Below are positions 8,790-43,841 of a stretch of DNA of 64,000 nt, piece after piece. Under the pieces are notes generated by a model, which worked only from the letters and a program-made list of their open reading frames with translations, had not been told where the DNA came from and made no database searches. The first letter of the stretch is position 1. Every line of letters starts with the position of its first letter. Origin of the DNA: an uncultured Gemmataceae bacterium (GTDB lineage: Bacteria > Planctomycetota > Planctomycetia > Gemmatales > Gemmataceae); contig CAVVPN010000003.1 in NCBI GenBank assembly GCA_963750165.1, positions 544,001 through 608,000 on the forward strand, in the 5' to 3' direction. The translations under genes were made by a program, and so were the position numbers.

Positions 8790-9083
8790 TCAAGGGGAGG
8801 GCAGCATAGGCCCCTCGCGCACGTACATCTGTCGGCCGCAGAACATCGCCGGTTCGCAGTCCGCATGGTCGGTCAGTTCGTTGTACTCCGCCTGGGTGAA
8901 TACCTCGGGGGGGCCCCGGGTCAGGCAGGTTTTGCGGAGATAGATCTCCTCGCGATCGACCGTGACGTGACGGGGCGCCTCCACCCCCAGGCGCACTTTG
9001 GCACTAACGATCTCGGCCACGACCACGCGAATCTTGCCTGCGATGACGATGGCCTCATGCACTCTGCGGGTCAACACCAACAT
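8790..9083 (-). CDS. csrA: Carbon storage regulator CsrA with C-terminal extension
   Basis: MLVLTRRVHEAIVIAGKIRVVV...VRLGVEAPRHVTVDREEI; AAGGAGG RBS. Confidence 0.9.
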   Translation of the reverse strand: MLVLTRRVHEAIVIAGKIRVVVAEIVSAKVRLGVEAPRHVTVDREEIYLRKTCLTRGPPEVFTQAEYNELTDHADCEPAMFCGRQMYVREGPMLPSP

Positions 9084-9258
9084 GGCATTCCCTCCTTGAC
9101 GTCTCGGCCGCCGACATGACGGCCGACTCGGCGGACCTCCGGGGAGGGGGAAGGGGGGCGCCCGCACTTCCTTGCGCAGCAATGGCCGTCCCAAGGCCCC
9201 GCCGACCCCTTCCCGCCACCCCGGAATTGCTCCGGCCCGCTCGTCCCGTCATCGGCGA

Positions 9259-9632: not shown

Positions 9633-10784
9633 ATGACCATGTCGCACCTTTTTGCCGTCTCGGTTCTCTTCATGGCGGGTGCAGCGGTTCAATCACCCGG
9701 CAACCCGGACAAGGAGTTCTCGGCTCTCAAGAAAGAATACGAAGCCGATGACAAGAAACTGAGGGAGTTGATCGAACCGTTGCTCAAGCAACGCGACGCC
9801 ACGAAAGACAAGGAGGAAGAACATCAGCTGAACCTGAAGGCCGAGGCGCTGCTCAGCGAACGAGCGCGGAAATACGCGGCCAGGTTCCTGGCGTTCGCGG
9901 AAGCCCATCCGCAAGCCCCGGCAGCTTTTGAGGCGTTGGTCCTTGCCCTGCGTGCGGGGGGCCAGTACGCGGTTGACTCGGGCGTGCGTTGGAAAGTCAT
10001 CGATCGGTTGACCGATTACGCCGCCAGCCCCAAGATCAAGGAGATTCTGCGCCAGGCCACGGGCATTCCCCATGAATCCGCCGACAGGCTGGCGCGGGAA
10101 GTCATCAAGAAAAACCCGGACCGCACGATCCAGGCGCTGGCCTGCCAGGGCACAGCCGATGGCTTGTGGTTGGTGGCCCGCGCTGCCGAGAAGGCCAGGA
10201 CCGACGCCGGGAGACGAGCGGACCTCGAACGCCGGGTCGGCAAGAAATACGCCGAGCAGGCCCTCGCCGGAGTGGCCAAGGCCCGCAAGGACGCCGCGGC
10301 GTGGGACGCCATCGTCTGGAAGAATTACGCGGACGTTGTTTTTGATTCATCGGTCGGCAAGCCGGCCCCGGAATTGATCGGCAGCGATCTCGCGGGCAAG
10401 GAAGTGCGGCTGAGCACTCTCAAGGGCAAGGTGGTGGTCCTGGAGGTGTGGGCCTCTTCGGAGCGCACCTGTCGGGGCGTGATCCCGCTGCAACGAGAAT
10501 TGGTGGAGCGGCACAAGGGCAGTCCCTTCGTATTCGTCGGGATCAGCGCTGACAAGAAGAAGGAAACCCTCCTGGAATTCCTGGCCCGGGAGCCCCTGCC
10601 CTGGACGCACTGGTGGAACGGCAGCGAGGGCGGCATACTCTCGGCCTGGAAGATCAGCGTCCTGCCGACCGTCATTGTTCTGGATGCGAAAGGGGTCATT
10701 CGTTATCGAGCCGCGGGCAATGAAGGCATTGCCGGTATGCACCGCGCCGTCGATAGGTTGCTCAAGGAACTGAAGGATAGGTAA
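9633..10784 (+). CDS. Secreted TlpA/redoxin-family thioredoxin-fold protein
   Basis: Signal peptide; GKPAPELIGSDLAGKEVRLSTLKGKVVVLEVWA...LPTVIVLDAKGVIRY. Confidence 0.85.
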   Translation: MTMSHLFAVSVLFMAGAAVQSPGNPDKEFSALKKEYEADDKKLRELIEPLLKQRDATKDKEEEHQLNLKAEALLSERARKYAARFLAFAEAHPQAPAAFEALVLALRAGGQYAVDSGVRWKVIDRLTDYAASPKIKEILRQATGIPHESADRLAREVIKKNPDRTIQALACQGTADGLWLVARAAEKARTDAGRRADLERRVGKKYAEQALAGVAKARKDAAAWDAIVWKNYADVVFDSSVGKPAPELIGSDLAGKEVRLSTLKGKVVVLEVWASSERTCRGVIPLQRELVERHKGSPFVFVGISADKKKETLLEFLAREPLPWTHWWNGSEGGILSAWKISVLPTVIVLDAKGVIRYRAAGNEGIAGMHRAVDRLLKELKDR

Positions 10785-10900: not shown

Positions 10901-11318
10901 TCAAGACGACGGACACCGACAGTAATGTTGCGGTGGGACTGATCGATGGGCCGAGTGGTGGCGCCAAATCGTCGTTGGTGCAGGCGATACTCAAGGATCC
11001 TTGCCGGTGCTACGGCCGCCACCGCAGTCCTTTCGGTAGCCGGCACTGTCGTAATAACGCCCAAGTTGTCCTCAAGACCAATGAGGCAACCGCGTCCTGT
11101 CGAAGGGGTGTCCCCTCACACCGCCGTGGTAGATCGAGGGAGAACAGCCAATCAAACAGGGCAGTGGCCCTGGAAGGCGGGCCTGCGCGCCGAGGGCAAC
11201 CGGACCGACAGATTACCTCGGTGCGCTGGGCAAACCGGCTGGCGAGAGGTTCCTTGTAACCGAAGGGCGCAAGCCGCCGGCCTCACAGATCGTCCAGCCG
11301 TAAACAGCAGGAAACTCG

Positions 11319-12038
11319 TCAGCCACACACCTCGACGCCGGCCCTCCGTCCTCGTCGCAGGACCCACCAGGCGGCGGGCGACAGAGCCGTGATCGCGAGC
11401 AGCAGTGATGACGGCTCCGGCACCACGGCCGACCCCGAACCGCTCACAGTGATCGTCCCGTCCGGCGCGTTGAAACTGAGGTTGTTGTCCTGGTCGTCCG
11501 AAAGGCTGGTCGTCGGATAGGACAGGAACGAGACAGTGACCGGGCCGTTCGGCGTGCCCGCGGCGACGTTGAACGACACGTGAGCCAGGCCCACCGTTTC
11601 ACCCGACCCCAGTGACGTGCCGCCGACGGCGGCGAAATCGGAGGCCGTCAACGAGAGGCCCGGCGCGGACGGGGCGATGTCCGGCCCGAACAGGGAGTTG
11701 CCCACGGACGTGGTGATGTCCGGCCCGAACAGAGAGTTGCCAGCGAAGACGTACGGTAACGTCGTGTTGATCTGGGCGTCCGTGAACGTGATATTCGACG
11801 ACGAACTCTGGATGCCGAACGAAAAGCCGGCGATCGTCACCGCGCTGGAACCGGAATTGGTCAGCGTGATTTCGAGGTCATTGCTCGTTGAGCCGGCAGT
11901 TGCCGTGGTCGATTGTACGTTCAAGGTCAGTATGAAACCCGCCGAGGCGGGTGCGACGGCGAGTAGCAGCACTGCCACGGCGACGGCCAGGTACCGGAAC
12001 TCCGCGAAGGAGCAAGAACGGTTGGGTGAGTGGTTCAT
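11319..12038 (-). CDS. PEP-CTERM surface protein with a cohesin-like beta-sandwich
   Basis: Signal peptide ending ASA; C-terminal VPEPSSLLLAITALSPAAWWVLRRGRR; body follows cohesin-like strand pattern ending DGTITV. Confidence 0.85.
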   Translation of the reverse strand: MNHSPNRSCSFAEFRYLAVAVAVLLLAVAPASAGFILTLNVQSTTATAGSTSNDLEITLTNSGSSAVTIAGFSFGIQSSSSNITFTDAQINTTLPYVFAGNSLFGPDITTSVGNSLFGPDIAPSAPGLSLTASDFAAVGGTSLGSGETVGLAHVSFNVAAGTPNGPVTVSFLSYPTTSLSDDQDNNLSFNAPDGTITVSGSGSAVVPEPSSLLLAITALSPAAWWVLRRGRRAGVEVCG

Positions 12039-12145
12039 GAAGCATTCCTCAAGTCAGAGTAACGAAGGTCTTTTCCATCCATCCTACCAACGCCGGCGTT
12101 TCGTGTCCCCCGCCGCCGGCCTCCTGGACACAGGGCCGGAGTCGG

Positions 12146-15100
12146 TTACAGGTGGGCTCCGATCCGGCTGCGTGCGAGCCCCATGTCCGTGTTGTCCACC
12201 ACGCCGTCGCCGTTGATGTCCATGAAGATGTCGTAGGGCTGGCCGATGGCGTTCCGGACCGCAACCACGTCGGCAGCGTCCACGGCCCCGTGGCCGAGGG
12301 TGTCGCCGTAGAGGACATTGAAATTCTGCGCGAAACCATCGCCCAGCGTATTCCCGGCCGCGTCCTTGACGGCGTCGGGACCGCTGCCGGCCAGCAAGGT
12401 CGAAAACGCGCCAATGGTCAGGGGGCTGATGGTCCAGGTCAGGCTATCGGTGCCCAGACCGCTGAAGCCGGTGACGCTGAGGCCCGCGAGGCTGTTGGCG
12501 TCGGCGGAGGCGATCGGCTTGCTGAAGACGACTTCGATGCCGGTGATCTGCCAGGGCAGGTCGAAGCGTGCCGAGCCGATCAGGTCGTACTTCTGCGAGC
12601 CGAACAGGACGTAGAAGTGCAGCACCGTCGGGGCGGTCGTGTCGATGACCAGGTTGCTGTTGGCGCTGAGCGACCCTGCGGTTCCGGGCGCGGACAGGGC
12701 GAGCAGTGCAGGGTTGGGGTTGTTGTCGGTGTCGGCGATACTGCCGCCCTCGAGCGCCAGGGCGAAGGACGTGGCGGCGTCGAGGCGAGCGCTGTTCTCG
12801 CCGGCACCGACGACGTAGGTGAAGGAGAGGGTGCTCGTGCCGCTGCCGCTGGTGTACTGGGCCGTGCCGCCGGAATTGAGCGCCAGCTGCGGGGTGCCTG
12901 TCACAACCACCGGCTTGCTGAAGGTGACCTGGACCAGGATGGTGGTCCCAATGCCGTAGGTCCCGTTCGCCGTCGTCGTGGTGACGTTTGTCACCGCCGG
13001 GGCGACGGTGTCGATGACCAGGTTGCTGCTGGCACCGAGCGACCCGGGGCCACCGGCGGACGCCAGCGTCAGCACGACCGCGTTCCCATCGGCGTCGCGG
13101 ATGGCGCCGCCATTGAGGGACAGCGCGTTCGAGTCGGTGTAGTCGAGGTGACTGCTGTTCTGGCCACCGGCCACGACGTAGGTGAACACGAGCGTGCTGG
13201 AGCCACTGCCGCGGGTGTACGAGGCCGTGCCGCCAGAATCGAGCGCCAGCTGCGGCGTGCCGGTGACGTTGACGGTCCCGTTGAAGCTCACGCTCATCAG
13301 GATCGTGGCGCCGACGCCGTAGGTTCCGTTCGCCGTCGTCGTGGTGACACTGATCACCGTCAGGGACGAGTTGACGTCCTGCTCGAGGGCAACGGGCGTG
13401 CTGCTCGGCAGAGAGTCGTCCTGGCCGGTATAGGAGGCGGTAATGAAATGCTGGCCGACGGACAGGGTCGAAACGGGGAGCGTCGCCACCCTCCCGACCA
13501 GATCGCTGGTCCCAAGCACGGCCTGGCCGTCGTAGAAGGTGACGCTGCCCGCCGGGACGACACCGCCGGTCGCGGACTGGACGGTGGCCGAGAAGGTGAC
13601 CGTCTGGCCGTAGACCGACCCCGACGGTGCGTCGGAAGTCAGCGTGGTCGTGGTGGCCGAGGCAACGGCGACATCGGAGATGCTGACGGAGCCGTTGAGC
13701 TGCGACGCGTCCGAACCGCCGATGAAGCGGAAGACGAGCCGTCCCGCAAGGCCTTGCAGAGAGGAGATGTCCAGGGTGACAACCTCGGAGCCGCTTGTCG
13801 CGCTCGCCGTAACGGTGACCCCCGTTGCTGCGACAGGCGTCGAGCCGGGCACCACGTCCTGGGCAAAGAACGAGTCGGTCTGCCCCTCAGCCGAGGGGAC
13901 CAGGGTGGCCTGCGTGGTCGGGTCGAGGAGCGAAACTCCGAATGCGTCCGGTGTGGCGCCGGACGGCACGGATTGATCGTACGTGAAGCCGTTGACGGTG
14001 AACGTGAGGGTCGATGCGCCGGTGGGGATGAGGAAGTCCTGGTACAGATCGACTTCGGCGTTCGTCGCGCTCTCGCTGATGACCGCCTGGTGGTTCGCGT
14101 TCACAATCACGTACTGCGGCTCGGACGTGGACCAGGCGGCCAGGTTGTTGGATCCCTGGTTGAACTGACCGTTGGTGAACGGCCCGACCGGCCCGGACGG
14201 CGGCGAGAGCAACAGCGGCTCCCCGTAGGCCGCGATCGGTGTGATGCTCGACTGGGCCAGCGGTAATGTGAACTGCGTGGCGCCGGAGGGTGTGCCCGAG
14301 GTTGTGCCGGAACTGGTTATCGGGGTCTGTGTCGAGGTCAGGGTCGTGGGCGTGGGTGGCGGAGAAGCGGCGTTCGCGACCGCCGCCACAGTGCCTGGGT
14401 TCGAAATGGCGGCGACCGTCCCGGTGCCGGTGGGTTGAGCGGTCTGGTCGATCGGGTCGAGCGCCAGCAGGTCTGCGAGTTGCGGGATGCGCCGCACCCC
14501 GGGCGTGATGGTGAGGTCCATCAGGTCGTGGGGTTCGGCGGAGTTATCGACGTCGGGCAACCCGAGCACGTGGCCCATTTCGTGTTCGACAACGGTGAGC
14601 AAATCGACCGCGCCGTAGGCCGGGCTGCTGCTGGTGGCGTCGAACTCAGTCGGCACAACGGTCTGGCTGAATACGGAGTTGTCCTCCGGGGTGGGGTCGA
14701 TGAACCATCCCGTGCCGGCTGCATCGGGGCTGATGGTGACGACGTTGACCGTGGTCGAGCCGACCTCATCAGCCGGCAGGGTGCCGATCTGGTAGGTGGC
14801 GGTTTGCAGCGCCTGGATCTGCGCGGCGGACGCGCCGGCCGCGGCCCAGTCGGCGATGGCCTGGGCGACGACGGTGCCGAGGATGTTCGGGGTGACCGTT
14901 TCGGACGCCGGGACCGTGCTCGGCGCCGGGGTGGGATCTTGGAGTAGAGCCTGTTGGGGGAGGGGTTGTGGGCTGGGTGCAGCAATGCGCACGTGGTAGT
15001 GCCCGTTGTGCCCAGAGGACCAACTAACGAACCCGACAAAGCCACTGGCAGGGTCATGCCAGAAGTAAGGGTCGTCGTAGAAAATCTGACCGACCGTGGG

Positions 15101-18100
15101 TGCCGTAGCATTCGCTTGGGCGTTCAATTGCTTAAAGTCGTTGAACTGGTTGATCAACAATGGCCTCACCACGTTCAGGTAGACTGGGTCGTAGGCCAGC
15201 AAACCCAGATCGTACAGCAAGGAGAGTTTGGCCTTGGCATTCGAACCCAGCAACTCGGTGGCGGGAACGGGCAGCCAGCCTTGCCAAACGCCCGTTCCGA
15301 TAAACAGGCTCTGAAGTGTGTCGGCCACAGAGCGGACCGCGAACACGTTCGTTCCTTGCGCATTCGTTCCGTAGTATTCCCACAAGACGCCAACGCCGGG
15401 CACAGTGCCCGAGGGATCTTGTGCCGCCGCGAGGCCGTAGAGCGCGGCGGTCGGTCCAGTCTTTTGATTGAACCACTGGAAGAACAAATGCGCGTTGGGG
15501 GCAATTCCTTCAGCGACATGGATCGGCCCTGTCGGATCAACGTCGAATTCGATACCACCTTGATGATCGTGGTGGGAAGGGTTCTTTTTCCCCGGCGCCC
15601 AGAACGGGCCACCCTGGGACAGACTGATGTCGCCGATCTGGAAATTATAGAAATCGAACGGATTGTAAGTGGCCACCTTTGTGACGGCAGCCAGCACCTG
15701 TCCGATCCATTGCGTTCCCCACGTGACGGAACTGTTGGTGAGGGCTGGGGAGTGGAGATTGTAGAAGCCGGAGTAAGGGCTCGCTTGAGCCAGTTGATTC
15801 CAAACCTGGGCGTTCGCCGCATTGAGGTAGGACAAGGTCTGCAGCGGGTCTTGAGAGGCTGTGACAACGCCCGATTGCGCTGCGACCGTGTAATTACCGT
15901 TTTGTCCGGTCACCAGAGCCGCTTGGAACAGCTTGATTGCATAAATCGTTGCGTCATCCGGTTGACCGTTCACCACAAGTCCCTCTGGCTGCGGTGTGTA
16001 TGGGGCGGGGAACGGGACCATGCTACGTGCGCCGGGAATTGTCGTCATTGTCGTCGGCGCGGCGGTGGTCTCGGGATAACCGAGGTAGCGGAGACGCTGT
16101 TGGACGCGGTAGACGTCGAGGGCATAGTCGAGGACGAAATTGGAGCCAGATTGGGGGGAAACGTCGATGGCGTTATTCGCCGGACCGACCGCTCTCGTGT
16201 CGAGCGAAAACGAAGAGTAATCGGGAGAACCGTTGTTGCCGATGCGGACGTACAGAGTCCCGTATTGACGGCCGTACCCAGGATAGGTAAAGGAAAAGGT
16301 CCCCCACACCCAGGTGGCAGGAGGAATGATGCCGTTCCGCAGTCCCAACACCTCCTGATCCGTGATCTTGGGAGCGAGGTAGAAAATGCCGGTGCTTGCG
16401 AAACTTGAGCTGGCGGTAGGCTGCAGGCCTGGGCTGATGAGGTTCGGCGGCTGAACAATGTCGAATTGGGCCGGCATGGTGTTTGGGGCGGGCGGAGTGT
16501 ACAGCAAGACGTCGGCGCCCGAGGCGTCAAAGGAATTGATGTCGAGAATGAAATCGGACGCGCCGTGAATCAGATCCTTCAAATTCTCTTCGACGATGTC
16601 TCCGTAGCCGTGTGGTCCCGAACCGGTGTCTACCACGATGTTATCGTTGGCAAACTGCTGGGAGCCGGACGTTTGAAGGTACTCGGGGCTGCCGGTGTCG
16701 CTGTCGCCGGAAGTGACGCCGACGAGGTACGACTGCATGGCCAGCCCGTGCGGGAGGCCGCCGATGGCGATGGGCGGCTCATCCCCAGGCGCCGGGTTGA
16801 CGGGCTCGAACGACGGGGCGTACGAATCGATCAGGCTCGGGTTGTACACGACGGACGGCGGCAACTGATAGTTGGCATCGACGTCGATGGCCGGATTGAC
16901 CGCGTCGATGCCCTGGACCGTCAGGATTCCCGGGGCTTCCTGGAGGACTTGCGCGATGTTATCAGGCAGGCCCGTGTTGTTCAGTGTGTCACTGATCTGC
17001 CGGATATCATACACCATCAGCGCCCCGGACCCACCCGTGACCGGGATGCCCGCGAAACTGGCGTACAGGTAGTTGCCGTCAGGCGAGACGGCAAGATCGA
17101 ACGGATACCCGTTGGGGATGGTGCGCGTCGCCGCAACGAGCTTCGGGTCGGTGAATGGGTTGGCGATGATGCCAATGGTGCTGCCGGCGGGGTTGAAGGC
17201 CGGGACGCCCTGGTTGTGGCTCGGGATGTTCGGATCCGGAAGGTTGTAGCCGGCGACGAAGGCGTACTTCCCGTCCGGTGTAATGGCGACGGCGCGCGCG
17301 TTGTTGACTTCGAACTCGTCATTCGCATTTCCCTGGAAACTGAACCCGGTAAAGTTGGCCGTCGTGCCCCCCTTGGTGATCAGCCCGAAGGCCTGGTCGT
17401 TGTGCACATAGTCGGTGAATGTGATGCTGTCGTCAGGCCCGGCGGTGACGCCGAACGGGTCCTGGCCCGCGTCGATCGAGTTCACCAACTGCCAGGATGG
17501 GATTTTGTTAGAACCGAGGGTCAGGTCGATGACGAAAATGTGGCCGTTGGCCGGCACGGGCGGCGTGGGCGGCAGTTCCTCGGTAGGGAGCGTGTTGGGC
17601 ACAGCGACGTAGAGCCGGCTGCCGTCGCTGTTGATCGCCAGGCCGCGTAACCCGTACGGGGCGGGGTTGATCCCCCCGAACTGCTGGACGACGGCGTTGG
17701 TCGGATCATCGAGGTTGATCGTGTATCTCAGGGTGTTGTAATGGGGCGACGCCGGGTCAATGTCGATGACGTAAACGAGTGGGTGTGACTCGTCGGTCAC
17801 GTAGGCGTACTGGTCGGCGGGATCGATCGTGATCTGGTACGGGGCGGCGTAGGGTGGAAGCCCGGTGACAGTGGCGACTTGCCGGAGCGCCATGGCATCG
17901 ACCACCGCGATACCCTGATAACCAAGCTCCGTGACGTACGCCCGGGTGTTGTCATGGGTCACCGCCACGTCTCCGGGGAAACTACCCGAGCCCAGCGAGA
18001 TCTCCGCCACGAGCTGGTTGAAGTTCGGGTTGGCGGTGGTCTGGGTGGGGTCATTTAAGTTCACCAGCACGGGCCGTGCGTCGAGCACCGCGAGCTGACC

Positions 18101-21100
18101 CAGGCTGTTCTGGCCCGAGCTGTATTGGGCCGCAAACAGGTAGCCGCCGGTGGGAGTCAGACTCGGCGCGTTGCTGACCAGTTCCTCGTTGGTGTCCGGG
18201 TCCAGCTTGGTAATGTCCACCGTCAGCGTGCCCACGGCGAGCGTCGGGGGCACCTGGACCTGGACCAGGGTGTCGGTGGGGGAGCCGACGACCTGAGCCG
18301 CCATGGGCGTGCCTTGACCGGGCGGGTTGAACCAAACGTTGGGGGTGGTCCCGCCGGGGCCCAACAGGTTCTGCCCCGAAATGTCCAGCAAGGGAGTCGT
18401 CTGGTTGAAGTCCAACTTCAGTGAGGTAATCTGGGCCACCTGTGGCTCGTAGCTCGGGTCCGGCATGAAGGTCGTCTGGAAGGTGTTGGCGGCGTCGGCG
18501 TTGATGCCGATCTGCTGCACCTGCGCGAGGGGTGGGCCGAGGACAGGGATGGAGACAAACTTGAACGTGTTCGGGCCGACGGGCGCCGTCAGAAGCAGCG
18601 TGGTCAGGGCGGCGGTGGTCGCGGTCAGGGCGTAGACGCCCGCGGTCGTGCCAACCAGGAATGCTCCGGTCGCGGTGAAGCCGGCGCCAAGGGTGATGCT
18701 CGCGGTCAGGAGGGCGGTGTTGACGGCAACCGCCGCCGCGACGTAGATGCCCGGTAGCCAGATGTGAGGGTACTGCGAGGCCGGCCGGGCATACCCGTCG
18801 GTGCCGATCACACCGCTGTCCGTTTGCAGCCAGAGCGACACGGTCCCGCCGCTGCCGTCCGGCATGCTTCCGTATCGGTAGAAGACCACGGTCGTGCCCG
18901 GGGTCACACCAGGCATCGGAATCGCCACTTCGACTGGTTGATTCAAGCTGGCACCACCAAAATCCAGATTAAACGGGCTGGCGGCCGTGACCCAGTTCGG
19001 CAGGGTAAGAGGTAGTGTCCCCTGGTATGGGGTGATGCTCACCTGTGCCGGCTGACTCAGCGCTCCTGGCGGTATCTTCACCAGGGCGCCGTTGGCCGCG
19101 CTCACGACCCCGCCGACCGGCCCAACCGTTGCCGGGCCCACCAGGGGCGGGCTGCCCGTTACCGGAACCACCAATTCCTGGCCGTTCTGGATGACCGTCA
19201 CCTTCGCGCTACCCGGCGCGACCACCGTGACCAGCCCGTCGGCACTTACCTGAGCGACGGCGGTGTTACTCGAAAAGTACAGCGCGCCAGAGGCGGCCTC
19301 GCTGGCGTCCTGGCCGTCCTGGGTAACTTCCAGTTGACGGCTGCTCCCGGGCGCCAGGGCGAGCGCCTGGGGATAGACTGCCAGGCCGGTGTAATCGGGT
19401 GTTGCGTCAAGGTCCGGGTCGTCAACGTTCACCACCGTCGCCGCCTGGATGCCGTGGCTGGAAACGACGAGCGCGGCGCTGCCCGGCGCGACCGCGGTGA
19501 GCTGACCCGTCGCGGCCACCGTCGTCACGGTCGGGTCGGTGGTCTGAAACGTCACGTAACTGGCCGGCAGCGCCACGCCCTGCTGGTCCGCGAAGTCGCC
19601 GGTGATCGTCATCTGCTGGGTGTCGCCCGGGTTGAGTTCCGGTGCGCGATCGGTGATGTCCAGCCCCACGAGTGCGGCGCTGCTCACCGTCACCGACACC
19701 GTGCCCGCGGGCGAGGTGCCGTACCCGTCGTCCGCCTGGAACTGGAAGCTCGCGGGGCCAGTGTACCCCGGCGCGGGTGTGAACGTCACCGTGTGCCCGT
19801 CCGGGTTCAGCACGGCTGTGCCGTCCTGAGCGCTCATCACCCGATAGTAGAGCGGATCGCCCAGCGGGTCGGTCGCGAGCGTCAACAGATCGACCGTCGT
19901 CGGCAAGTCCTGGTGCGTCAGCGCCTGACCGGCCGTGACGGACGGCGGCTGGCTCGACTGGAACCCCAGGTCGGCCGCCAGCAACTGCTCGTCGGCCGCG
20001 CTCACCGTCCCGTCCAGGTTCGCATCCGCCCCGAGCACATACCCCGGCTGACCCACCGACGTACCCAGCGCCGCAGCCAGCAACTGCCCGTCCACCCCGT
20101 TCACCGTGCCGTCGCCGTTCACGTCCCCGGCCACGAACGGCCGCAGCGAGTACCCGCCCGAGGTCCCGTTGGCACTCGGCACATCGAGCAGCTCCAGCCC
20201 CTCGCTCGTGATCGTGAACAGGGCGAACGAACCATTCGGACCGGAACTCGTCATCAGCGGCGTCAGCCCGGCGATCACCGGAATGCCCGGCTGGAGCGAA
20301 CTCCCGGCGGTGGGCGTCACCTGCACTCCAAGGTAGATCTCGCCGCTGTTGGTGGACCCGATCTCCGAAGCGCGGAACGTGAATACGTACCGGTCCGTGC
20401 CGCCCGCGGAGAGCGTGCCGGTCTGCGTACTCGTCAGGAATTGACCCGAAGTGCCCAGGTTTGCCGTCAGCGGCAGCACCAGCGGGGCCGGGGTGTACTG
20501 CACCACGGCGCTGTCACTGGCCACCGGCGAAACGATCAGATCCAGGAGGTGGGTGCCGGCCGAGTACCCGTACCGGCTCGACTGCCCCAGCGCGATGTTC
20601 CGCGCCGACATCAGATTGCCGGCCGAATCGTAGCTGTAAACTACCTGGCTCCCGTCGGACGCAGTGATCGTGGCGATGCGCCCTTGCGCGTCCGTCACAA
20701 ACGTAAGCGTGTCGCCGGTGGAACTGGTGATGCCGCCGTTGGTGAAGTACAGTACCGTCCCACCCGGCGTGGTTTCCTCCACGAGCTTGCCGGTGGCGCT
20801 CAGGTCGTACACGGTGCCGTCCGGACCTGTCAGCGTGTACGCCGCGCCGCTGAATTGTCCGCTGGCCGGGTTGTACGGCACCGCCGTCTTCAGGTCATAG
20901 AACCGATCGCCTGCCTTCACCAGGACACCGCCCGCGGAGGAGAGCATCCAGTTCATGCCCGGATCCGCCTGCCAGGCCGGAGTGTAGTACGTCACACCCG
21001 TTTGCGTGTGCGCCACCGGCTCGAAGGTGAACCCCACACGGCTGCCGTCCGGCAGCGTCAGGTACAACCGGGTTCCGACCCGGAACGGGTTGTACACACC

Positions 21101-28300: not shown

Positions 28301-31300
28301 GGGCCGGACGGTTCCGACTGCCCACGGACCAGGACGTAGTACACCCCAGCCTTCGTGGAAGGGATGACGGCGTACTGGTTCGCCTGGAGCGGGCCCTGGT
28401 AGATGGCGTCGTAGACGGACCCGGTCGGGACCGCGTTGTACCGCAGGTACAGTTCGTTGGACGCCGCCGGATCGGACGAGGTGAGGTCCACGCGCAGGGT
28501 CTGGCCCTGTGCCACGGTCACCTGGTAGAGCTGGGTCTGGCCGGTGGCGAGGGTGGTGCTCAGGGGCACGCCCAGGTGCAACTCGGGCACGGTCACGCTC
28601 ACCACGTCCGCCGAGGCGGTGGTGTTGTTGAGCTTGTTGCTCTCGGGCACCTGGTCGAAGATGTCGGTGCGGACGATCACCCGGTACTGCCCGGCGCGAC
28701 GGCGGGCATGGTGACATCGGTGGCGCCGGTGTACGTCTGGCCCGGCATGAGCGTGCCGCCGGAGTATCTGATCGTGCCCAGGAGCGGATCACTGATGGAC
28801 CAGGTGGCGTCCGGGGACAGGTACAGGGCGTCGCTCCAGGAGCCGTACGCCGCGTACGTGCCGATGTTCTCGACCGTCCACTGAATGTGGGCCGACTGAC
28901 CGGCCATGGCCGACCCCGGCACGGGGACCGTTTCGACCTCAAGGTCGGCCGGCGGCGGCTGGTCGATGATGAGCGGGACGGTGGTGGCGGTGGCGTTGTT
29001 GGTCTCGTTGGACTCGTACACGCTGCCGCGCGGGTCCGCACCGACGAGCGGGTCGGTGATGACGATGACGTACCAGGGGCCGAGCAGACCCGTCGGGGTC
29101 TGGAAGGTGAGCGTGTTGGTGTAGCCGGCCCCGGCGGCCAGCGCGCCGGAGTGCTGGAAGAATCCGAGGTACGTGTCCGCCGGGTCCAGGATCGGGTCGC
29201 GCGACAGGTAGACGGCGTCGGTCCAACTGGTCTGCCGGGCGAGGGTGGCGCCGGCGCCCTCATTGGTGACCGTATACGTGACGGTAAACGACTGGCCGGA
29301 GTAAACGTGGTCGGTCTGCATCGGGTCGGGGCCGGCGGCCGCGGCCGCGGTGACCTGGAGGTCCGGCAACAGGGTCGCCTGGACCGGCAGGAGGCCTGCC
29401 GTAACGTTGTCCCCCTCACCCTGGAACTCCGGGACCATGTTCATGGCCTCGGTGACATACGGAACGTCCAGCGGCGTGGTGCTCGGCTTCACCGAGTCGG
29501 TGTAGACGAGGATGTAGTAGTTCCCCTGGATCCCGTACGGCAGGGTGACGTTGAGCCCGGCGGTGTACGAGCCGCCCATCGGCAGGCCGGACGTGTGAGG
29601 CACGACTCCCAAGGACACGGCGGTGTCGTCCAGCGACGGGGACTGCGACAGGTACACGCTATCGACCCAGTACCCCTCGCGGGTGTCGCGGCTGCCGACG
29701 TTGGTGACGGTCCAGGTGACCGGGATGGTGTCCCCGGCGTGCGGGGCCGTGGTCGGCACGACCAGGTTCGTCACCCGGAGGTCCGGCTCGCGGTAGAGCA
29801 CCGGGATCGACCCGCCGCCGATGTTGTTCGTCGGGTCCTCGTACCCGTTGCTCTCGAAGTAGTCGCGGCTGGCGTCGTTGTCCGTACCTCCCGTGCGCGT
29901 CAGGCCGTAGGGGTCCGTGACGACGTACACGTAGAACGGCGCCGGGGCGTTCCCCATGCCGCCGATGCCGCGCGGGAGCGTGAAGGTGAGCGTGCCGGTG
30001 TAGCTCTGCCCCGTGCCCAGCGGCTGGTCGTTGCTGTGTGGGACGCTCCCGACCAGAAGCGTGTATGCGTCGTCGGGCAGGAACGTCGAGTACGGGGACA
30101 CGTACACCTCGTCGGTCCAGTACCGGGTGCCGGACCAGACCGTGCGCCGAAGTTCTCGACAGTCCACTGAACGGCGGTTTTCTCGCCCGAGTAGTTGGAC
30201 GCGGGGCCGGTCACGGAGGTGACCCGGAGGTCGGCGGTCGGCAGCGGGGTGACCAGGGTCGATGCGGAAGCGGTGTTGTTGTTAGTGTACGGCCCCTCCC
30301 ATGTCGGGAGGGTATTGGGGCCGCCCGTATTGGTGTCCACGATCACGTACGTCCCGGAGATCTCCGGGGACAACTGGAACGTCTGCTGGGCCGTGTAACT
30401 GGCCCCGGCCGCGACGGCCCCGTCGTGCTCGACCACGCCCAGGAGCCACTGCTTGGCGCCAGGTGCGTTGAGGGTCGGCTGGTTCGACAGGTACACGGTG
30501 TCGTACAGGACCGAGTCCTCGGTCGGGCTTGTCCCCTCGTTCTGGACCGTCCAGCTCACCGTGTAGTTGTCCCCGCCCACCGCGGTCGCCTGCGGGTGGA
30601 CGGCGGTCACGACGAGGTCCGGCGGCGGGGTGAGCAGGACGGTGATCGGCCGGGCCTTGTAGTTGTCGTTGTTGAGCTGGTGCGGGTCGTCCGGGTTGAT
30701 GTTGACGTCGAAGGTGCTCTTGATGAGCGTGTCGAACGAGTCGGCCCAGGGTGTGATGTAGTACTGCCCGGAAATGTGCTTGGGCAGGGTGACCGTGGTG
30801 CTGACCGTGTAACTCCCGGGTGGGGACAGGACGCTCGGGTCGTTGCCCAGGACCCCCTGGTGGGTGAGTGTGGTCAGGAGTACGTCACCCTTCGACGGGT
30901 TCGGCCGGGTGGGGTCGTGGGTCAGCCAGATGGTGTCGGCCCAACTCGGCAGATCGGTCGGGCCGGCGCCCTTGTTGGACACAGTGTACTGGACGGTGAT
31001 GGTGGTGCCGTCGTACGTCTGGTCCGGGGCCGCCACCGCGCCGGTGACCAAGTCGGCCGGCGGCAGCGGGCTGATGGTGATCGGCCAAACGAACGTGTTA
31101 TTGTTGCCGTTCGGGCCCTCGTTCACCGCGTCGTCGCTGTTGGTCTGGACGATCAGGTACGCGGGGCCGCTGAACCGCTGGGGGATGACCAGGTCGCCGG
31201 TCTGGGTCTGGTACTCCGCGTTCGGGTCGAGGGCCGACTGGTTGGCGAACCTGCCCAGGAGCGTGGCGCTACCGTCGAGCGTGCCGTGGAGCGACAGGTA

Positions 31301-37300: not shown

Positions 37301-40300
37301 TGAAGTTGAGCGTGCCGTTGCTGATCGCCACGGCCCCGACGGCCTGGACGGTGACGCCGGCGCCGAAGTCGGCGGCCCCGTTGACGGCGGTGGCGTTGGT
37401 GATGTCGTAGGTCGTCCCGCTGGCGAACGTGGTGGCGCGCCCCGAACTCGGCGGTGCCCGCCCCGGACACCGCGGCCCCGCCGTTGAGCGCGAAGGTCCC
37501 ACCGTCGAAGCCCAGCGTGGCGCCGGCGGCGACGGTGAAGTTCCCGGTGTCGGTGCTGCCGCCCTGCAGGCTCAGGGTGCCGGCGTTCACCTGGACGGCG
37601 CCGGAGCTGTTGAGGGCAGTGTAAACGGTGGTGGTGTTGGTGTTGTCGTCCGTGAGGGTGCCCTGGTTGACGAACGTGCTGTTGCCCTGGCTGTTCTGCC
37701 AGTACAGCTGGGCGATCCCCTGGGCGTCGAGGGTGGCCCCGGGGGCGTTGGTGAAGGTGCTGGCGTTCTCCTGGTAGAACTCATTGTAGATGTAGTAGTA
37801 CGCGGTGCTGCTGGTCCACACCCCGGCCCCGGCGTTGGTGAAGGCGCTGGCTCAGGTACTCGTAGTGGTAGTTCCCGTCCGACGCCCCGAGCTGCAGCCT
37901 GCCCTGGACCACCGTCGAACCCGAGCCACTCATCGTCCCACCTGTCCAGGTGGTCTGGCTGGTGACCGTCACCGCGTCCGAACCCGTCAGCGTCCCCCCC
38001 GTCATGGTCAGGGCGCCGAGGGTGATCGACGACCCGGTGCTGAAGTTGAGGGTGGATCCGTCGAGGAGCGTGGTGCCTCCGAAGTTGTCGGCGGCCCCGG
38101 TGCTGAAGTTGGCGGCGCCGGCCCCGAACTCGGCGGTCCCGGACCCGGTGAACGAGGCCCCGCCGTTGAACGCGAAGGTCCCGCCGTCGAAGCCCAGCGT
38201 GGCGCCGGCGGCGACGGTGAAGCTCCCGGTGTCGGTGCTGCCGCCCTGCAGGCTCAGGGTGCCGGCGTTCACCTGGACCGTGCCGGCGTTGTTCAGTGGG
38301 ATGTCAATGTTGGTGGTGTTGGTGTTGTCGTTCTCAAGGGTGCCCTGGTTGACGAACGTGCTGTTGCCCTGGCTGTTCTGCCAGTACAGCTGGGCGATCC
38401 CCTGGGCGTCGAGGGTGGCCCCGGGGGCGTTGGTGAAGGTGCTGGCGTTCTCCTGGTAGAACTCATTGTAGATGTAGTAGTACGCGGTGCTGCTGGTCCA
38501 CACCCCGGCCCCGGCGTTGGTGAAGGTGCGCTGGCTCAGGTACTCGTAGTGGTAGCTCCCGTCCGACGCCCCGAGCTGCAGCCTGCCCTGGGCCACCGTC
38601 GAACCCGTCCCCGACATCGTCCCGCCCGTCCAGGTCAGTTGCCCGGTCACGGTGAGCGTCCCGGCGCCGGTCAGCGTCCCGCTCATCTGCGTCAGGTTGC
38701 CGAGGGCGACGGCGGCGTTCACGCCGAGGGTGCCGCCGTCGAGGAGCGCGGCGCCCGCGCCGGTCACCGCGGCGCCGACGTTGAGGTTGGTAGTGCCGTT
38801 GTCGAACCCGAGGGTGGCCCCGGCGGCGATGGCGAAACTCCCGGTGGCGGTACCGCCGCTCTGGAGCGAGAGCGTGCCAGCGTTCACCTGGACGGCGCCG
38901 GCATTGTTGAGGGCGGCGTAGAAATAGATGGTGTTGGTGGCGTCATCCTTGAGGGTGCCCTGGTTGGCGAAGGTGCTGTTGTTCTGGTCGTCGTACCAGT
39001 ACAGGGGAGCGACGCCCTGGGCGTCCAGGGTGGCCCCTGGCGCATTGGTGAAGGTGCTCCCGCTCTCCTGGTGGAACTGGTTGTAGATGTAGTTGTACGC
39101 GGTGCTGCTGGTCCACACCCCGGCCCCGGCGTTGGTGAAGGTGCGCTGGCTCAGGTACTCGTAGTGGTAGGTGTTGTCCGCCGCCCCGAGCTGCAGCCCG
39201 CCGTCGGCCACCGTCGCGCCCGTGCCCGACATCGTGCCCCCCGTCCAGATCAGTTGCCCGGTCACGATGAGCGTCCCGGCACCGGCCAGCATCCCGCTCG
39301 TTTGGGTCAGGTTGCCGAGGGCGACGGCAGCGTTCACGTTGAGGATGCCGCCATCGAGGAGGACGGTCCCGGTGAGCGCGGCGCCAGCGTTGAGGTCGGT
39401 GGTGCCGCTGTCGAACCCGAGAGTAGCTCCGGCGGCGATGGCGAAGTTCCCGGTGTCAGTGCCGCCGCCCTGGAGCGACAGGGTGCCGGCGTTCGCCTGG
39501 ACGGCGCCGGCGTTGTCCAGTGGGGTGTAAATGTAGGTGGTGTTGGTGGCGTCGTCCTTGAGCGTGCCCTGGTTGGCGAACGTGCTGTTGCCCTGGCTGT
39601 CCTGCCAGTACAGCGAGGCGAGGCCCTGGGCGTCCAGGGTGGCCCCCGGGGCGTTGGTGAAGGTGCTGGCGTCCTGCTGGTAGAACTCGTTGTAGATGTA
39701 GTTGAAGGCGGTGCTGCCGGTCCACACCCCGGCCCCGGCGTTGGTGAACGCGGCGCTGGCTCAGGTACTCGTAGTGGTAGGTGTTGTCCGCCGCCCCGAG
39801 CTGCAGCCCGCCCTGGGCCACCGTCGAACCCGTCCCCGACATCGTCCCACCCGTCCAGGTGGTATTGCCGGTGACGGTGACCGTTCCCGAACCGGTCAGC
39901 GTCCCGCTTGAAAAAGTCAAACTCCCTGCTGAAACGGCTGCGTCGGCCGTCAGCGTCCCACCGGTGATCGTCAAACTACTCAGGGACGAGTTCGAGGCGA
40001 GTGAGATGGACCCGGCGGAGAGAGACAGGACAGCCTGGCTCGTGATGCTGTGAACCGAGTCCGCGGCCGATGTAGCGTGCGTGACCGTGATACCGGACGT
40101 GTTGATGACGACATCGTCGGGCGCCCCGGGCACATAGTGCTGCCCCTGGGAGTCCTGCCAGTTGCTGGCTGTGTCCCAGTCGCCTCCCTGGGGATTGATC
40201 CAGGTGAGCGTGGCCGGCGCCAGGCGATCCTCCAGCCGCTCCAGGGCCAGCGGTGTCCGCGACCGAATGGACGGCTTTCGAGAGCGGCGACGCCCGGTGA

Positions 40301-40825: not shown

Positions 40826-41575
40826 TCATGGCTTGTGGGGCGAGTGATTTTCGCAGCGGTATCCGCCTGGGGAAGCGGACACCAAGAGGTTTTTCGAGCT
40901 AGTCGTCGTGGTAACGATGCTGGTTGATCCGCTCCGCCGAGCTCTGCTAACCCGCGCTGTCGTTGGGTGCCGCGGCCGGAAGTTGTGCGGCAGCGCCCAC
41001 CCCCGGCAGTGCAGCGCGCAGGGCGCGACACTGCCGTGCAGGTGTTGCACGACCTCGAAGTACCGGCTCATGGCCCGCATCAGCTGGCCCAACATGGTGC
41101 CGGTCCGGTGACCGCCCGGGTGCTGATACGCCGCGCCGTACTCCCGCGCCTGGCCGCACAATTGCTCGACCTGCTCCAGCAACCAGGCGGTCAGGGGTCG
41201 GTCTCGCGCCCACTCCTCCGACCGGCGTTGCCGTTGCGCGAAATTCGGGCGATCCGGGGTGCGGAACGCCTCCCAGACCTTTCGGGACAAGTCCGCGAAC
41301 GCTGCGCTGAGTTTGCCGCGGCTCCGGAGGTTGAGCCAGCCGCGCTGGAAGCAGCGCAACAAGACCACCAGCGGGTACAAGGCCCGCCACGCCTGGTGGG
41401 TGGCCGCCCAGCCATCGACGCTCACCGTCCGAAATTGGTAGTCGGGCTGCATGTCCGAGCCACCGCTTGGAAGGCCGCGTAGGCGGTTTGCAGATCCTCG
41501 GCGCCAGCCGTCGGGGCCAGGGCCGCCCCCAGGCAGCAGCCCGCGCCGACCGTGGTGGCGTGGGACGCCATCCTA
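40826..41575 (-). pseudogene. Degenerate, 5'-truncated DDE-type transposase
   Basis: TVSVDGWAATHQAWRALYPLVVLLRCF...HPGGHRT.TML...NFRP...NLLVSAS across frameshifts. Confidence 0.7.
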
Positions 41576-41938
41576 TCAGACAGGCAACAAAGTATGACAA
41601 TTTGAAGGGGTGTTTTTGCTTTGACGTACCGGCCCCCTCTCATGAAACCTGCTCCGGTCCGCCCCACCGATGCGAGTTTGGTCATGAAGCAAACTGCGTC
41701 GGACATATCGCCCGACGCAACGAAGGTGCAACGCAAGTGACTGGCGCCCAGCAGACGCCGTGCCGGAAACCCATGGCGCCCAAATGCGGTCAGAAATGCC
41801 GGGCAGGAAAAAGCAGGAAACTCCGTGGAAACTGTGCGATCGGGACTTGCGCCAGGGCCGAGTTCCTGTATAATATGGAAGTGTGTGATTTGTAAGCCGT
41901 GAAATGGCTTGCTCTTGCGATTTCCAGTCCTGCTACCG

Positions 41939-42349: not shown

Positions 42350-42601
42350 ATGGCGGATGAGGTAACACTCCTCGTCAATGGCCAGCTCGTCACGGTGGCA
42401 GCCGACACCACCGTCGCGGCGGTGCTGCTGACCGCCGGCATCACCACGTTCCGCCGCTCCGTCGCCGGCTCGCCGCGCGGCCCGCTGTGCGGCATGGGCG
42501 TCTGCTTCGAGTGCCGCGTCACCATCGACGGCGTGCCGCACCGCCTCGCCTGCCAGACATCATGCGCCGCCGGTATGGAGGTTCGCACCGATGGGCCGTG
42601 A
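42350..42601 (+). CDS. 2Fe-2S subunit (D-hydroxyproline dehydrogenase / HcnA-like)
   Basis: RGPLCGMGVCFECRVTIDG...LAC. Confidence 0.9.
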   Translation: MADEVTLLVNGQLVTVAADTTVAAVLLTAGITTFRRSVAGSPRGPLCGMGVCFECRVTIDGVPHRLACQTSCAAGMEVRTDGP

Positions 42602-43841
42602 CCGCGCCTGTGACGTGCTCGTGGTCGGCGGCGGGCCGGCCGGGTTGGCCGCCGGCGCCGCTGCGGTTGCCTCGGGCCGGCGCGTCGTCCTGGCCGATGA
42701 CAACCCGACCTGGGGCGGCCAGATCTGGCGCGGCGAAGCGAACAAGCCTTCCGACCGCACGGCGCAGCGCTGGTTCGCGCAGGCCGCGGCCAGCGTCCAC
42801 CTCCTGCCTGGCCTGCGCGTGTTCGCCCAACCCGCACCGCATACCCTCTGGGCCGAGTCCGCCCAGGGCCGCGTCACGCTCACCTACGAGCGCTTGATCC
42901 TGGCCTGCGGCGCCCGCGAGCGCTTCCTGCCGTTCCCGGGCTGGACGCTGCCGGGCGTCTGCGGCGCGGGCGGCTTGCAGGCACTCGTCAAGACGGGCCT
43001 GCCGGTCGCCAGCAAGCGCGTGGTCGTGGCCGGTAGCGGCCCGCTGCTGCTGGCGGTCGCGGCCTACCTGCGGCACCAGGGAGCGCAAATCCCGCTGATC
43101 GCGGAGCAGGCGGCCTGGGGCCGGCTGCTGCGCTTCGGTCTCGGCCTGTCCGCCCACCCCGGCAAACTGGCCCAGGCGCTTGGCCTGCGCTGGCGGCTGC
43201 GCGGCGTGGCGTACCGCACCGGCTGCTGGCCCGTGGCCGCGCACGGTGATGAGCGGCTGGCTTCCGTCACGCTGACCGACGGCCGGAAATCCTGGGACGA
43301 GCCCTGCGATTACCTGGCGTGCGGCTTTGGTCTGGTGCCGAACGTCGAGCTACCGGCGCTGCTCGGTTGCGGCCTCCGCGGCGGCGCCGTGCAGGTCGAT
43401 GACTGGCAACGCACCACCATCCCCGGCGTCTTCTGTGCCGGCGAGGCGGTCGGCATCGGCGGCCTGGACGCGGCGCTGGTCGAGGGCGCCATCGCTGGCC
43501 ACGCCGCCGCCGGCAACCGCGCCGCGGCGCGGCGGCTGTTCGGCCGACGGCGGCGGGCGCGGCGCTTCGCCCGCGCCCTGGACGCCGCCTTCGCGCTGCG
43601 GTCGGAACTGCGGGCGCTGCCGCAGCCGGACACCATCGTTTGCCGCTGCGAGGATGTGGCCTGGGGCCGGCTGGCGCCTTATGACAGCTGGCGGGCGGCC
43701 AAGTTGCAGACACGCTGCGGCATGGGGCCGTGTCAGGGACGGATCTGCGGCCCGGCCCTGGCGTTCCTGCGCGGCGTCGAGCCCGAGTCGCTGCGGCCGC
43801 CGGCCCTGCCCGCGCGCGTGGACAGTCTGTTAATCGAATAA
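42591..43841 (+). CDS. FAD-dependent oxidoreductase with BFD-like C-terminus (D-hydroxyproline dehydrogenase / HcnB-like subunit)
   Basis: VVGGGPAG, GARERFLPFPGWTLPGV, VCRCEDV, RCGMGPCQGRICG. Confidence 0.88.
   Translation: MGRDRACDVLVVGGGPAGLAAGAAAVASGRRVVLADDNPTWGGQIWRGEANKPSDRTAQRWFAQAAASVHLLPGLRVFAQPAPHTLWAESAQGRVTLTYERLILACGARERFLPFPGWTLPGVCGAGGLQALVKTGLPVASKRVVVAGSGPLLLAVAAYLRHQGAQIPLIAEQAAWGRLLRFGLGLSAHPGKLAQALGLRWRLRGVAYRTGCWPVAAHGDERLASVTLTDGRKSWDEPCDYLACGFGLVPNVELPALLGCGLRGGAVQVDDWQRTTIPGVFCAGEAVGIGGLDAALVEGAIAGHAAAGNRAAARRLFGRRRRARRFARALDAAFALRSELRALPQPDTIVCRCEDVAWGRLAPYDSWRAAKLQTRCGMGPCQGRICGPALAFLRGVEPESLRPPALPARVDSLLIE

Follow-up and report, generated by a model that had tools for sequence, protein, structure and literature searches.

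A conserved gene pair encodes an X-dockerin tail and a predicted cohesin with a PEP-CTERM sorting signal in Planctomycetota and Acidobacteriota

By what means outer-membrane-bearing bacteria retain megadalton proteins at the cell surface, and what role PEP-CTERM proteins play once their sorting signal has been cleaved, are two questions that come together at one locus of an uncultured Gemmataceae bacterium. We analyzed a 64-kb stretch of its DNA (C3:544001-608000, hereafter the window) from a 9.6-Mb, 12-contig genome (G+C 66.7%). The window contains a giant gene and, co-oriented with it and 107 bp past its stop codon, a small gene, P0001, whose product ends in a PEP-CTERM signal (Table 1). An earlier note on this sequence, which put the distance at about 110 bp, had proposed that the giant protein ends in a dockerin that is held on the cell by a cohesin-like domain in the small protein. 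Our analysis favours a broader reading, to which we assign a probability of roughly 0.6: the two genes belong to a portable two-gene cassette, in which the C-terminal X-dockerin of a cargo protein binds a predicted PEP-CTERM cohesin (the socket) that holds the cargo at the cell envelope.

The single domain of P0001 is predicted to fold as a cohesin that Pfam misses. Its AlphaFold2 model has a mean predicted local distance difference test score (pLDDT) of 87, and all rows listed by Foldseek with this model as query were cohesins or cohesin complexes (best 6kgf, E-value (E) 1.9e-10). A wide structural search with VIA aligned 142 of 144 residues to 6kgc (Z 16.0, root-mean-square deviation (rmsd) 2.4 Å); its top 20 rows (Z 16.0-10.9) were cohesins by title or related protein-interaction modules; a different fold first appeared at Z 10.0. 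Neighbours of P0001 in the ESM Atlas include clusters annotated with Cohesin and PEP-CTERM. The strand pattern from which the earlier note had read a cohesin layout can be found word for word in the translation. The ends of the protein are those of a putative exosortase substrate. The signal-like N-terminus, recognized by eye, is modelled with a helix at residues 12-26 and closes with A33, which is conserved in at least 90% of the rows of the best 120 relatives (161 were returned by the search, of which the best 120 were aligned). The PEP-CTERM signal noticed by the earlier note is tripartite and scores 18.1 bits with TIGR02595 (cut-off 16), which at E<=0.1 also matches 87 of the 120 best-listed family members. 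Six exosortase (PF09721) matches over the cut-off were found at five places in this genome; two of them belong to a single, split exosortase gene (C4:1281651-1282399).

The other half of the putative pair lies in the last 165 residues of the giant, which are modelled with a pLDDT of 97.8 as an immunoglobulin (Ig) sandwich, the X module, followed by a two-helix dockerin. The duplicated calcium loop-helix motif of this dockerin (GDTLGHGAVDAAD...DINGDGVVDNTD), already noticed at the C-terminus by the earlier note, matches Pfam Dockerin_1 (PF00404) with 24.7 bits when scanned alone (cut-off 22.9) and with 20.3 bits inside a 300-residue piece. Residues 108-165 of the tail resemble solved dockerins at Z 5.1-6.0, with an rmsd of 1.4-2.4 Å and about 30% identity, among them 2ozn_B (Z 6.0, 55 residues aligned at rmsd 2.1) and 2y3n_D (Z 5.5, 48 residues aligned at rmsd 1.4). 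The second dockerin-like pair that had been placed near 19965-20130 was likewise recovered with Pfam, and stands inside the giant (Table 1). Separately, 38 Pfam cohesin matches occur in other, mostly very long open reading frames (ORFs) of this genome, some of which then run into degenerate dockerin-like stretches; these could possibly be partners of the internal dockerin. Elsewhere, a 2,209-residue ORF (C3:1377831-1384457, minus strand) ends in another type of dockerin and is not followed by a socket gene; its downstream neighbour is dapB-like by eye.

We modelled a complex of the cohesin with the C-terminal X-dockerin only, using paired 69-row alignments, two calcium ions and three runs. The modelling that had been suggested for this pair gave a confident interface, subject to the caveat on solved pairs given below: the complex scored 0.89 in all three runs, compared with 0.49 for the best of three controls, against a score mark that is reached by 116 of 157 solved pairs and by 2 of 215 mismatched pairs, counts that are only roughly valid here. 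The three runs share at least 95% of contacts, and the partners have pLDDT values of at least 96. The predicted interface brings cohesin residues 70-73, 103-104, 131-135 and 174-186 against helix 1 and helix 3 of the dockerin, with helix 1 making contact through positions 10, 11, 17 and 18, which we take to be the usual recognition sites. On the cohesin side, the interface includes S178, L179 and D181, for each of which conservation reaches 90% or more in the rows of the best 120 relatives. We consider it very probable that cohesins and dockerins bind one another within this family.

To what extent the two modules travel together was assessed in 401 genomes of the class, 58 of which carry a homologue of P0001. 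Homologue loci comprised 95 of 116 listed matches together with three from a family search, 21 mostly weak matches being omitted, and the pairing count covers 91 loci, with the locus in the window excluded and one locus at a contig end (L061) dropped. A first dockerin profile, made from six Pfam matches of this genome only, found a co-oriented dockerin just upstream at most homologue loci. Pfam confirmed this independently: at 72 of the 91 loci, the first ORF upstream in the same orientation gave a Dockerin_1 match at E<=0.01, which exceeded the cut-off at 59. Another 43 loci were obtained from genome and metagenome contigs with a narrow 8-row alignment (a locus scan with the single P0001 protein as query gave no match); eight have too little upstream DNA, and a profile made from the pairs located a dockerin upstream at 32 of the 35 informative ones. 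These further loci include four from Bryobacterales/Bryobacteraceae and one from Humisphaera, and Pfam Dockerin_1 is found in four of these five at E<=0.001. The pair recurs in two phyla, Planctomycetota and Acidobacteriota.

As a control, a dockerin was found within about 1.5 kb at 1 of 25 weak-hit PEP-CTERM loci, three of which have less than 300 bp upstream; the one positive locus (L025) may be a divergent family member. None of the other 22 TIGR02595 matches in this genome, some of which are not real genes, stands behind a dockerin gene. Across the 401 genomes, both modules occur in 52, the cohesin without the X-dockerin in six and the X-dockerin without the cohesin in 13; in family f5 both are found in 42 genomes, one or the other in four and four, and neither in 48. 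Only 7-9 candidates per genome were scored for these counts, and related genomes do not count as independent.

The conserved unit is the X-dockerin tail with the cohesin gene, and the cargo varies. Of the three refuting conditions that the earlier note had named, none was borne out: the fold is predicted to be that of a cohesin, the model of the complex has an interface, and the pairing of the genes is conserved. The synteny held for this pairing but not for the giant, and synteny with homologues of the giant protein was rejected as a description. X-dockerin-bearing ORFs range from 157 to more than 6,000 residues, many being cut by frameshifts or contig ends. A Pfam scan at E<=1e-7, covering 25 of 40 long loci, returned reprolysin, subtilase with P-domains, RHS, beta-helix, phage collar, FG-GAP and NHL domains, and long MBG/Ig/cadherin stalks. 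No glycoside hydrolase family was found in any of the 25 cargo ORFs at this threshold, nor in the eight pieces of the giant at E<=0.1, and no Pfam cohesin was found in the giant or the 25 cargos (Pfam misses divergent cohesins). An Arg-rich LE-x-R start motif is present in 15 of the 25 scanned cargos. In this genome the giant has two close paralogues, both without the X-dockerin tail, and P0001 is the only gene that fits the socket profile; the cassette is therefore a module added to a cargo, rather than a trait of the giant's family.

Other arrangements were also seen among the loci. The order of the pair is apparently reversed in one genome (G371), two socket genes lie 2-5 kb apart at L104 (G467:C122) and at L062/L113 (G480:C3), and tandem X-dockerin genes precede a single socket at L145, L157 and L158. 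In G075, a close socket homologue (L033:10529-11341) is a solitary gene on the opposite strand, surrounded by what by eye are terminase-, portal- and capsid-like phage genes; this genome also has four X-dockerin genes elsewhere.

In the cassette reading, both proteins would be exported, an exosortase would cleave the PEP-CTERM tail and the socket would be re-attached at the surface. Helix 1 of the calcium-loaded dockerin, together with helix 3, would dock on the conserved sheet of the socket, and the long Ig/CARDB/cadherin stalk would project the remainder of the giant outward.

Several observations weigh against this interpretation. Pfam and NCBIfam scans of P0001 gave no cohesin match, and the hidden Markov model check proposed in the earlier note was borne out by PF00404 on the tail but failed for PF00963 on P0001, which is absent from the 38 Pfam cohesin matches genome-wide. 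Among the best 120 of 161 relatives, Pfam Cohesin touched two (best E 0.01), and a Protein Data Bank profile search with P0001 yielded 4ums as its best match at an E of only 0.54. In loop 1 of the tail dockerin, position 3 is L, where 65 of 69 rows have N or D, and position 5 is H, where 63 of 69 have D; this loop retains D1, D9 and D12, and loop 2 is canonical. The pairing is not strict, since 19 of the 91 loci have no Pfam dockerin upstream, the pair-derived profile finding five C-terminal and two internal dockerins among them. In five multi-copy genomes, a cohesin match comes directly after only 22 of 33 full X-dockerins, two more being in tandem upstream of one, and some tails may therefore use a socket in trans. 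The score of the complex may stem from its likeness to solved cohesin-dockerin complexes, so that binding of this particular copy is not implied. Distances among cohesins and among dockerins correlate (r 0.35; X module 0.22; 0 of 500 permutations; 68 of 77 pairs used, nine dropped) and the best partners coincide in 498 of 993 comparisons, where 390 would be expected (68 pairs), but this modest co-variation reflects joint inheritance, for which linkage alone is a sufficient explanation, and is not evidence of binding. The weak step of the mechanism is location: that the socket is "membrane-tethered" and the giant "on the cell" is what we infer, what becomes of PEP-CTERM proteins past the inner membrane being only a proposal in the account drawn on here (PMC1569441) and their passage to or through the outer membrane likewise being proposed (bioRxiv 2023.06.07.544157).

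This uncertainty about location leaves some room, at much lower probability, for two readings in which the pair does bind. Binding could serve as a hand-off during export, where a socket whose helix is still anchored in the inner membrane captures the C-terminus of the cargo in the periplasm and releases it or passes it on at the exosortase cut. The account of PMC1569441 predicts that the PEP motif faces the periplasm at the inner membrane, the Sec-like starts of some non-planctomycete cargos (by eye) could let the partners meet in the periplasm, and one socket gene per cargo gene is common. We regard this as improbable, since known cohesin-dockerin pairs are described as high-affinity assembly links (PMC6461901; PMC12484212), and stalked, adhesin-like or hydrolytic cargos fit display better. 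Slightly less probable still is retention in the matrix, in which binding takes place but the socket, once cleaved, is released into the extracellular matrix, so that the cargo is kept in the floc or biofilm and not on a membrane. PEP-CTERM/exosortase systems have been linked to exopolysaccharide (EPS) loci and Zoogloea floc formation needs PEP-CTERM proteins, according to the same source that describes a related enzyme, archaeosortase, as leaving its substrates lipid-attached (bioRxiv 2023.06.07.544157), which argues against release, as does a single cohesin domain without an evident matrix-binding part.

The earlier note had treated the giant as one gene; this gene runs from 40352 to 12146, but in this assembly it is in eight frame pieces and not a single ORF, with breaks near 39750, 37850, 37440, 33540, 30150, 28690 and 22370. 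Single-ORF paralogues align across the breaks at 30143, 28690 and 22360 without loss, and all six located frame-switch points lie at GCGC. Genome-wide, 1,103 switches were called (1.64 per 10 kb of strongly coding DNA), with GCGC in 63% of their contexts compared with 29% of random coding contexts, and seven breaks in 28 kb are consistent with this rate (P of seven or more = 0.19). The breaks of the giant are likely assembly errors at GCGC, probably caused by systematic read errors at a modified (methylation-linked) motif. We consider it unlikely, more so than either of the two readings above, that the cassette works in relatives while the copy in the window is decaying, or that the giant is held otherwise, by its internal dockerin on the many cohesin-bearing giants of the genome or by an unnamed domain that it shares with another PEP-CTERM protein. 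The degenerate loop 1, the seven breaks, the 38 cohesin matches in other ORFs, the shared domain, the tail-less paralogues and a 39-bp duplication in the socket that is private to P0001 among the 20 rows shown could all be cited for decay or another hold; the breaks match the genome-wide rate and are mostly at GCGC, however, both modules are intact in frame, and the X-dockerin tail is 53-64% identical to its nearest relatives. That the genes are merely co-inherited neighbours whose products do not bind would explain the correlated distances by linkage and rightly treats a cohesin fold by itself as no proof of function, yet we consider it very improbable, because complementary folds remain adjacent across two phyla while the cargo changes, and conserved residues map to the predicted interface.

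By architecture and prediction, the cassette that we favour is of the ScaE type. In Ruminococcus flavefaciens, a cohesin with a C-terminal sorting signal is described as receiving proteins that end in X-dockerins, peptidases included (PMC12484212). Whereas ScaE, as presented in that source, relies on LPXTG and sortase at a Gram-positive wall, P0001 carries in place of LPXTG a VPEP-type PEP-CTERM signal for exosortase in double-membraned bacteria; also unlike ScaE in that account, copies of the socket gene accompany many cargos, which, as far as scanned, lack glycoside hydrolase families. Non-SLH anchoring scaffoldins are outlined in PMC11557425 as having at least one cohesin, an envelope motif such as a C-terminal transmembrane helix, and a partner with a C-terminal dockerin, all of which has a counterpart here. 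The anchoring scaffoldins of complex cellulosomes differ, to the extent that this source covers them, in that the partner here is no multi-cohesin primary scaffoldin, no dockerin-bearing cellulases were seen, and the helix is predicted to be cut off. Judged by Pfam, with no glycoside hydrolases in the scanned cargos or the giant and no multi-cohesin scaffoldin as partner, this is not a cellulosome.

The hypothetical "planctosome" of Nemodlikiaceae also involves non-cellulosomal cohesin-dockerin modules in planctomycetes, and some cargos here are, as in that model, M12B or subtilase/P-domain peptidases (PMC6461901). In the parts of PMC6461901 drawn on here, the model has a 2,210-residue lamin-tail-domain anchor and an adaptor, without a PEP-CTERM socket or a two-gene cassette, whereas our anchor is a single-domain protein of 239 residues; lamin-tail-domain matches are weak (best E 0.006) and occur in 11 of the 120 best-listed relatives, on the cohesin-folding domain. 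P0001 resembles PEP-CTERM/exosortase substrates in its signal peptide, Ser/Thr-rich body, PEP-helix-Arg tail and the exosortase in the genome (PMC1569441; bioRxiv 2023.06.07.544157). Most PEP-CTERM genes are, in those accounts, single-gene operons without known partners; members of the P0001 family instead lie directly behind a partner gene and have a predicted ligand. An ESM Atlas cluster with the same domain order (Cohesin in 61% and PEP-CTERM in 94% of members, commonest in Pseudomonadota) bears automatic names without partner, context or function. The cassette is also distinct from the dockerin-type giants of Omnitrophota, so far as these are set out in bioRxiv 2023.11.21.568195. We found no description of a PEP-CTERM protein paired with a cohesin or dockerin in the open-access literature (subscription papers and supplements were outside the scope). 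The conserved two-gene cassette is a variant of cohesin-dockerin anchoring coupled to exosortase sorting, with the binding itself predicted.

The giant begins with an Arg-rich LE-x-LE-x-R motif, presumably an export signal of the planctomycete type, which matched no Pfam or NCBIfam model, and continues through an Ig/CARDB/cadherin stalk, an RHS repeat and a propeller-like region to the tail module. It likely carries a cell-wall hydrolase module, as judged from sequence: Pfam PG_binding_1 (E 0.0035) and Peptidase_M74 (E 3.7e-4) both match below the cut-off, Atlas neighbours have PG_binding_1 with Peptidase_M74 at 0.92, and a Protein Data Bank sequence search with the module gave no match. The module contains H-x-x-H-x6-D and H-x-H motifs, which we take to be zinc ligands of the MepA type. 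The alignment of a paralogue on contig C4 ends ahead of this stretch, which therefore resembles a variable payload. Between the hydrolase module and the tail is the unnamed domain, which also forms the body of a separate PEP-CTERM protein (C4:224630-225655). A PEP-CTERM gene that is alike by eye only (C3:1679522-1680400) lies directly behind a tail-less paralogue of the giant, and this may represent a second docking route. Beside the hydrolase module, a HEMGH zinc-protease-like stretch (14395-14917, minus strand) has weak Matrixin and reprolysin matches and is common to several other large ORFs of the genome.

With this cassette, cohesin-dockerin anchoring reaches beyond Gram-positive cellulose degraders into Planctomycetota and Acidobacteriota. 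The cassette consists of a small pair (170 and 165 residues) that is amenable to testing, and offers new cohesin-dockerin pairs for protein engineering. More speculatively, and with clearly less than even odds, it could represent a plug-and-socket system for protein display that is general among double-membraned bacteria of soil and freshwater, in which any large exported protein gains an X-dockerin tail of 165 residues and a neighbouring cohesin sorted by exosortase, with pair-specific codes in multi-copy genomes; here, a megadalton stalk would aim a cell-wall hydrolase at neighbouring bacteria. Were this so, PEP-CTERM proteins would gain a defined ligand, and with it a direct tracer of the destination of exosortase substrates.

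Table 1. Features of the gene pair in the window (positions are those of the 64-kb stretch).
Feature	Position	Strand	Remarks
P0001, cohesin-fold PEP-CTERM gene, predicted socket	11319-12038	-	239 aa
Signal-peptide-like N-terminus, aa 1-33, A-S-A at end	11940-12038	-	By eye only
Cohesin-fold domain (predicted), aa 34-201	11436-11939	-	Foldseek and VIA structural matches
In-frame tandem duplication, 39 bp	11664-11741	-	35/39 bases alike; low-confidence loop of P0001
PEP-CTERM sorting signal (VPEP, hydrophobic helix, Arg cluster)	11343-11423	-	TIGR02595
Spacer, giant stop to P0001 start, 107 bp	12039-12145	-	GAGGA at 12046-12050
Giant gene, about 9,400 codons, 8 frame pieces	12146-40352	-	ATG at 40352
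C-terminal dockerin, predicted plug	12149-12313	-	Loop 1 degenerate, loop 2 canonical; stop 12146-12148
X module, Ig sandwich	12314-12643	-	Precedes dockerin and conserved there; CopC/SbsC-like, Z 7.6 (middling)
Unnamed domain, no Pfam match	13654-14188	-	blastp E 1.9e-9 to C4:224630-225655
Likely peptidoglycan-binding and M74/MepA-like murein endopeptidase module	14915-16147	-	Sub-cut-off Pfam matches and Atlas
Internal dockerin, canonical loops, without X module	19973-20131	-	Pfam E 5e-10 alone; aa 662-714 of last ORF

The GAGGA in the spacer is located seven bases ahead of the P0001 ATG, and neither promoter-like nor terminator-like sites were called within these 107 bp; a terminator-like site at 11157-11172 represents no excess over chance (2 found against 1.1 expected). 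Fragments of ORFs that by eye resemble a broken transposase, with no Pfam match, lie upstream of the giant (40829-41639, minus strand). The ordinary neighbours of the pair include genes for CsrA (8790-9194, minus strand), a thioredoxin/AhpC-domain protein (9633-10784, plus strand) and an FAD oxidoreductase (42591-43841, plus strand).

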